From the IMG/VR virus record IMGVR_UViG_2667527717_000011: a DNA stretch of 4,514 nucleotides; one strand, given 5' to 3'. This DNA is from a virus (Duplodnaviria; Heunggongvirae; Uroviricota; Caudoviricetes). Below are positions 864-1,381 of this stretch, piece after piece (position 1 is the first letter of the stretch; each line of letters begins with the position of its first letter). Both the position numbers and the translations under genes were made by a program. The notes under the pieces are model-generated. The model made no database searches. It had not been told where the DNA came from and worked only from the letters and a program-made list of their open reading frames with translations.

Positions 864-938
864 TGAACTGCCCGGGAATCCTGGAGACTAAACTCCCTGA
901 GAAAGAGGTAAACAGGATGACTAAAAATACTCGTTTTC
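864..938 (+). mobile_element. IS3-family (IS629/IS1203-like) left terminal inverted repeat plus first 7 codons of orfA, cut off at ambiguous bases
   Basis: TGAACTGCCCGGGAATCCTGGAGACTAAACTCCCTGAGAAAGAGGTAAACAGG followed by ATGACTAAAAATACTCGTTTTC (MTKNTRF), matching the recalled IS629 IRL and OrfA start. Sequence after the NNN at 939-941 is unrelated to IS629. Confidence 0.65.
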
Positions 939-991
939 NNNCGCAAATTTCTCGCCCCTGACGATAGCCCGCCAGCCGCCTCGCTTCTCGC

Positions 992-1381
992 TCAATGGCG
1001 ATACGCTGTGATGGCGGGATCTGCGGCCACAGCGGTTGCATGGTCACCCCGGTGGGATCGCGATAATCCACCGCGTGAATCTTNNNTCTGCNGCAATNCC
1101 ANNGCGNCCTGGCTATTGGGGGAAAAGTCTTTCAAACCAAGCTGTTTACAGTAAGCATCCCACCACCGGGAAAGAATCTGGTAGCGTCCAGCAGCCGTTG
1201 ATTTAAGTTTTGGGTTTAGCGTGACAAGTTTGCGAGGATGATCGGAGTAATCAGTGAATAGCTCACCACCTACAATAACGTCGTAGCCGTGATTGCGGGT
1301 TGGCTGTCGCCCGTTATCCGTTCCTTCTGACCACGCCAACATATCGAGGAAAGCTTTACGCTGAGGATTAAGATTTAGCAT
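992..1381 (-). CDS. R: Phage endolysin, lambda R-type lytic transglycosylase; N-terminal ~90 aa intact, C-terminal region disrupted by ambiguous bases and apparent frame changes, 3' end truncated
   Basis: ATG at 1381-1379 with GGGGTGA SD. Residues 6-89 ([78 protein letters not shown]) are near-identical to lambda R, including the catalytic Glu in AWSEGTD. After the N-rich stretch 1084-1107 the similarity continues only by switching frame ([16 protein letters not shown] in another frame around 960-1010). The last ~24 codons expected from lambda R are absent before the N gap at 939-941. Confidence 0.75.

Follow-up and report, generated by a model that had tools for sequence, protein, structure and literature searches.

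Does an endolysin gene that breaks off at a run of Ns, close to the end of an insertion sequence (IS) and with no spanin genes after it, record the loss of lysis functions by a prophage, or does it record the way in which a contig was put together? The question is raised by a stretch of 4,514 nt, here termed the window, that makes up nearly all of a ∼4.5-kb draft contig. An initial annotation, made from the letters alone, described a lambda R-like endolysin whose 3′ end was garbled and truncated against an IS stub, and offered either IS-mediated loss of lysis competence or a low-quality or collapsed assembly region as the reason.

We find that the feature is very probably an assembly artefact rather than a real feature of a genome, produced when software merged separate pieces at spurious short end-overlaps. 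The evidence includes the placement of the Ns at the two joins that flank a small piece of an unrelated chromosomal gene, together with the intact state of the same endolysin in close relatives. In what follows, positions count from the first letter of the window, and strands are relative to the strand shown.

Composition of the window

Blocks were assigned by reading the sequence, from its ORF listing, and by megablast against 5,426 complete Escherichia coli genomes and PLSDB. All are E. coli pieces, and the five loci that they represent (eutH, a pAA plasmid, hyfI, a DLP12-type prophage and an IS2 element), strung here on one contig, are unlinked in finished genomes.

The contig tip (1–71, minus strand) is a fragment of eutH, a chromosomal ethanolamine-utilisation gene, with 98.6% identity to more than 5,000 E. 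coli chromosomes. Inspection of the junction leaves an orphan base, the C at 72, that matches neither neighbour. The following block (73–938, plus strand) matches enteroaggregative pAA plasmids of about 80–165 kb with 100% identity. On these plasmids it forms part of an IS-rich region close to aggR, with aap, aggR and an IS110-family element upstream of it; given this identity, the source isolate probably carries a pAA-type virulence plasmid. The RefSeq annotation of pJBEHAAB-19-0176_1 was used in reading the block. The block opens with pAA-specific DNA (73–171), followed on the plus strand by an IS200 left end with a tnpA remnant (about 172–496), inside which lies STnc490, an Hfq-binding RNA from the IS200 5′ UTR (174–298; Rfam, 140 bits). 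Next comes a sitA-like pseudogene for a Zn/Mn solute-binding protein (about 495–864, plus strand). It carries internal stops and frameshifts and is a relic conserved on pAA plasmids, not the residue of a chromosomal sit locus that once stood here.

The block closes with the left end of an IS3-family, IS629-like element (864–938, plus strand), for which the name IS629 is provisional. Its sequence matches IS3-family transposase loci, with a terminal inverted repeat and then the start of orfA (ATG at 917; MTKNTRF...). A complete element of the family would span about 1.3 kb, with orfA, orfB and both ends; 75 bp are present here. The initial annotation had thus placed an IS3-family left end and a sitA remnant correctly, the IS in opposite orientation to the endolysin, and erred in treating the 75 bp as a stub: on pAA plasmids, where the annotation gives it as a transposase pseudogene with an AL1L frameshift pseudoknot, this copy of the IS runs on for over 400 bp, whereas in this contig it is cut at nt 75 by NNN.

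That NNN (939–941) is the centre of join 1, which reads TC-NNN-CG (937–943). Beyond it lies a 142-bp internal fragment of hyfI, the gene for the small subunit (subunit I) of hydrogenase-4 (942–1083, minus strand), and then join 2, a zone of overlay (1080–1108) with a second NNN (1084–1086) and single Ns at 1092, 1098, 1102, 1103 and 1107. The Ns thus fall where they had been described, at 939–941 and scattered through 1084–1107.

From 1087 to 4255 the window holds a segment of a DLP12-type lambdoid prophage, all on the minus strand. It comprises codons 1–98 of the endolysin, a lambda R-type lysozyme (1087–1381); the holin, 101 aa as called, with domain Phage_holin_3_3, PF16083 (1368–1673); the late antiterminator Q (1995–2684; Pfam PF06323, E = 1e-96); and a DLP12-type nin region (2681–4085) with ylcG (2681–2821), rusA (2818–3180), ybcO (3177–3467), ninE (3460–3630) and ybcN (3630–4085). 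Prophage homology stops at 4255, and an IS left end on the plus strand (4258–4514) with an HTH_Tnp_1 gene follows, its orfA starting at 4349; the contig stops inside this element, which we take to be IS2.

Endolysin and lysis cassette

The minus-strand ORF that starts at 1381 matches lambda lysozyme (PDB 1AM7/3D3D) over residues 1–91 without a gap (E = 7e-54), in agreement with the match to lambda R over some 90 residues first described. The comparison was made with PDB sequences, as no Pfam model matches this lysozyme family. The same 91 residues are 100% identical to those of the 158-aa endolysin of E. coli 7CC, and they include Glu19, in the motif AWSEGT. Glu19 is the catalytic residue of lambda lysozyme. 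Measured against lambda R, a lytic transglycosylase, the contig lacks the C-terminal 60 residues. The holin gene lies directly upstream of the endolysin gene and overlaps its ATG.

Homology to the endolysin covers 98 codons and stops at 1087. From that position on, all called bases are those of the endolysin, and past codon 98 the ORF is hyfI read out of frame. Searches of the whole window by tblastn and blastn found no endolysin C-terminus, and Rz and Rz1 were likewise absent from the window by tblastn with RzpD of 7CC and by blastn, as the initial annotation had said of the spanins. The complete 158-aa product with its C-terminal lobe is therefore not to be had from this contig, and neither are the spanins, since the sequence stops; this shows nothing about the organism. 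We attribute the missing C-terminus to the assembly join and not to the genome.

The nearest known system is the lysis cassette of the DLP12-type cryptic prophages (holin essD, endolysin rrrD/ybcS, spanins rzpD/rzoD, and bor). The contig shares with these prophages the order ybcN-ninE-ybcO-rusA-ylcG-Q-holin-endolysin, and its first 98 endolysin codons are identical to those of 7CC. It differs from them at both ends: the relatives have 60 more endolysin codons, Rz/Rz1 and bor where this contig stops at codon 98, and it has an IS2 end in place of the region upstream of ybcN. The biological content is that of an ordinary late region of a DLP12-type cryptic prophage with a lambda R-type lysozyme, and the lysis cassette itself holds nothing new.

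The hyfI segment

The stretch between the two joins leaves little doubt as to its origin. All 142 of its bases are identical to chromosomal hyfI (nt 484–625 of 759), a match that recurs, once per genome, in 4,295 E. coli chromosomes and lies always inside an annotated hyfI. Its translation matches HycG (7Z0S_G), a paralogue of HyfI, and not lysozyme. The initial annotation had followed endolysin similarity past the Ns by changing frame; what it took for a garbled endolysin 3′ end is hyfI.

This bears directly on the idea that 942–1381 is one continuous endolysin gene degraded by indels and bad base calls. The in-frame tail of the ORF does share a few residues with lambda R residues 102–112 (RG.L....RGD), and the alignment can be extended to residue 117. 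However, full identity to hyfI over 942–1083 already refutes such a gene, and the similarity between hyfI and endolysin is at chance level: the Smith-Waterman score of the two DNAs is 15, a score reached by 28 of 300 shuffles. We regard the chance that this idea is right as negligible. The same shuffles led us to reject a true hyfI-endolysin similarity as the driver of the join.

N patterns at the two joins

Exactly three Ns in a row stand at both joins, and at each the Ns can be compared with the sequences that the two parents would have had there. At join 1 the continuation of the IS (CCC-CG) was set against the sequence upstream in hyfI (TC-GAT). The three Ns are the three columns at which the parents disagree, and the two bases on either side of them are common to both. 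The register of this comparison is fixed by the sequence and has no free parameter.

At join 2 the overlay of the hyfI continuation and the endolysin spans 24 columns and includes a 1-nt gap, at 1088. Placed on the N-rich stretch without a gap, the continuation did not fit; a fit was obtained only with the 1-nt gap, which came from a MAFFT alignment. The overlay has 11 mismatch and 13 match columns; all eight Ns fall on mismatches and none on matches (hypergeometric probability 2.2e-4). The gap was chosen after the fact, and hence we ran a control in which both the register and the gap position were free to float: none of 5000 shuffled hyfI continuations reached the observed pattern. The other three mismatch columns (1097, 1100 and 1106) are called as endolysin and not as N. 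Taking the joins together, every one of the 11 Ns coincides with a mismatch column and no match column carries an N.

This is the pattern of a software overlap consensus, not of a biological breakpoint. Moreover, Ns that sit on mismatches to the hyfI continuation mean that at least 25 nt of that continuation were present in the data, and hence that hyfI in the organism runs on beyond 1083. Laying one parent over the other and asking whether Ns coincide with mismatches is a simple check, reusable for flagging chimeric joins in draft assemblies. In calling the region low-quality or collapsed as its second option, the initial annotation was essentially right, both breakpoints being N-marked joins with Ns at the disagreements between parents.

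A different kind of collapse is also conceivable, in which the Ns at 1092–1107 are differences between endolysin copies of two prophages in one genome, merged by the assembler near a repeat boundary. Several lambdoid endolysin copies are common in E. coli (a median of three places per genome with a wider query), and the prophage part of the contig does start inside a repeatable gene. Against this, the divergent allele of SCU-116 differs from the window at 1096, 1100, 1103 and 1106, and so explains one of the eight Ns; four aligned contigs that share the Q allele do not vary in the bases under the Ns; most of the Ns occupy first or second codon positions; and the NNN blocks and the hyfI insert are left without an explanation. 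We consider a merger of endolysin copies very unlikely.

Relatives with the same prophage

From 1108 to 4255 the window has 99.9% nucleotide identity to E. coli 7CC over 3,148 bp. Among the 5,426 complete E. coli genomes only 7CC, from mink, has this prophage allele at ≥99%; the next best is at 94.4%. A collection of draft genomes and metagenomes has 150 indexed blocks with exactly the Q allele of the window; five long contigs were listed from it (L007–L011).

Past the position of the join, 7CC and all five of these long contigs have an intact endolysin, of 158 aa in those of the long contigs where it is called. Four of them (L008–L011) do not differ from the window in any base up to 1087, beyond which a normal endolysin sequence follows. 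In 7CC the prophage continues with Rz/Rz1 and bor; in L007–L010 Rz and/or Rz1, bor and terminase genes come next. The remaining contig, L011, an unrelated one of 242 kb (GCA_907164465.1, CAJQYQ010000008.1, 7777–7923), stops 147 nt into Rz, a break indicating that the DLP12-type lysis region is a repeat boundary in other short-read assemblies too.

These relatives, with their endolysins intact, leave the proposal of IS-mediated truncation with loss of lysis unsupported, as does the order of the blocks: the immediate neighbour of the endolysin is hyfI, and the IS end belongs to the plasmid-derived block. Most likely the source strain has, on another contig, the normal 3′ half of the endolysin gene with Rz/Rz1 behind it. 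With a hyfI piece attached to it at N-marked joins, the garbled endolysin end is uninformative as to whether the prophage can lyse its host.

A second contig and searches for the junctions

Exact look-up of the X-containing 129-aa ORF, which runs from endolysin into hyfI, returned two contigs, both of 2–5 kb. The second (GCA_000938175.1, CCBS01000221.1; 4,545 bp) has the same sequence as the window between about 172 and 4514, down to every N. To the left of the IS200 end the two part: the second contig has 201 bp of yegI (4345–4545; 100% identity) where the window has pAA and eutH DNA. This yegI flank may be a true yegI::IS200 insertion that was threaded into the IS200 remnant of the plasmid. 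Assembly paths driven by repeats would explain a constant, N-marked composite whose flank changes between two unrelated chromosomal genes better than a fixed structure of the genome would. The window and this sibling contig end at the same base of IS2.

Neither join was spanned in any of the 5,426 complete E. coli genomes, with queries laid across each join, and wildcard pattern scans of GTDB representative genomes and JGI metagenomes found neither junction. A search for a clean form of the chimeric ORF among 5.8 billion protein clusters found none; the sensitivity of this search is uncertain, as the X-containing ORF itself was not returned. All that it returned were noisy fragments of lambda R, encoded on ENA contigs about 2–3.6 kb long. 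Candidate genomes with an endolysin and an IS3 element near each other were rejected as unrelated, the IS there sitting in Q, on the other side.

Assembly join or rearrangement

The reading that we favour, a merger of pieces by the assembly software, may be spelled out as follows. Three separately assembled pieces would have been merged: a pAA piece, which would stop where its IS3-family copy becomes indistinguishable from other copies; the 142-bp hyfI piece; and a DLP12-type prophage piece, which would begin inside the endolysin. At positions where two overlapping ends differed, N would have been entered in the consensus. In the real genome hyfI would then run past 1083 and the IS copy past 938, and we infer that no reads span the joins. 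The breaks in the contig lie in or beside repeats (the IS3-family end, IS200, IS2 and the lambdoid lysis genes). Mis-joined short-read draft scaffolds have the same traits: N-marked joins at disagreements, breaks in multi-copy elements, tiny pieces stitched in (here of 142 bp and 71 bp), and a sibling with a different flank.

Unlike such N-marked mis-joins, the one between eutH and the pAA block at 72 carries no N, and of the 12 bases that follow, 7 agree with the eutH continuation. It is probably another chimeric join, of a different kind.

The contig can also be read at face value, as a real rearrangement in which the prophage was cut in the endolysin, with a hyfI remnant and IS-rich pAA DNA coming to adjoin it through IS-mediated deletion, inversion or plasmid integration, and with the Ns as poor calls at true junctions. 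Two deposited contigs contain the composite, IS elements are abundant on it, and eutH and hyfI are chromosomal neighbours: in strain 118UI they are ∼44 kb apart, in opposite relative orientation. Yet the breakpoints beside endolysin and hyfI do not coincide with IS ends, and the IS is itself broken off at nt 75, where an N block stands. Were hyfI to end at 1083, its continuation should be missing from the reads, whereas the Ns track mismatches to exactly that continuation. The relative orientation of eutH and hyfI is wrong for a simple deletion, and on the K-12 map essential genes lie between them. The two contigs differ in their left flank, and neither junction occurs in any other assembly searched. 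We judge a real rearrangement improbable.

The face-value reading also has a more specific form, in which one enteroaggregative E. coli clone does carry the composite, with pAA DNA integrated into the chromosome beside a hyfI remnant and cutting a DLP12-type cryptic prophage in its endolysin, the Ns being assembler uncertainty at true, repeat-flanked junctions. We hold this form to be improbable too, and if anything slightly more so. Several points do count against an artefact: the recurrence of the composite in two deposited contigs, which could reflect a reproducible real structure in one clone; the ∼44-kb proximity of eutH and hyfI, which is unlikely for random concatenation; the three mismatch columns of join 2 that are called and not N; the post hoc 1-nt gap; and the N-free join at 72.

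The main value of the case is as a caution. Taken at face value, the contig would yield a false annotation, a truncated endolysin fused to nonsense; the prophage would be falsely scored as lysis-defective; and virulence-plasmid DNA would be falsely linked to chromosomal genes. Even a real truncation would be of small biological consequence, because DLP12-type elements are already defective cryptic prophages.

Other observations

The IS2 left end meets the prophage at a point ∼170 bp upstream of ybcN; relatives carry a 33-aa ORF and ybcM at that position, and none of the complete E. coli genomes has this insertion junction. The ENA contigs returned by the chimeric-protein search number in the dozens, and each encodes a unique, error-ridden lambda R fragment. 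Their appearance is that of long-read copies of a lambda control amplicon, deposited uncorrected as metagenome contigs.
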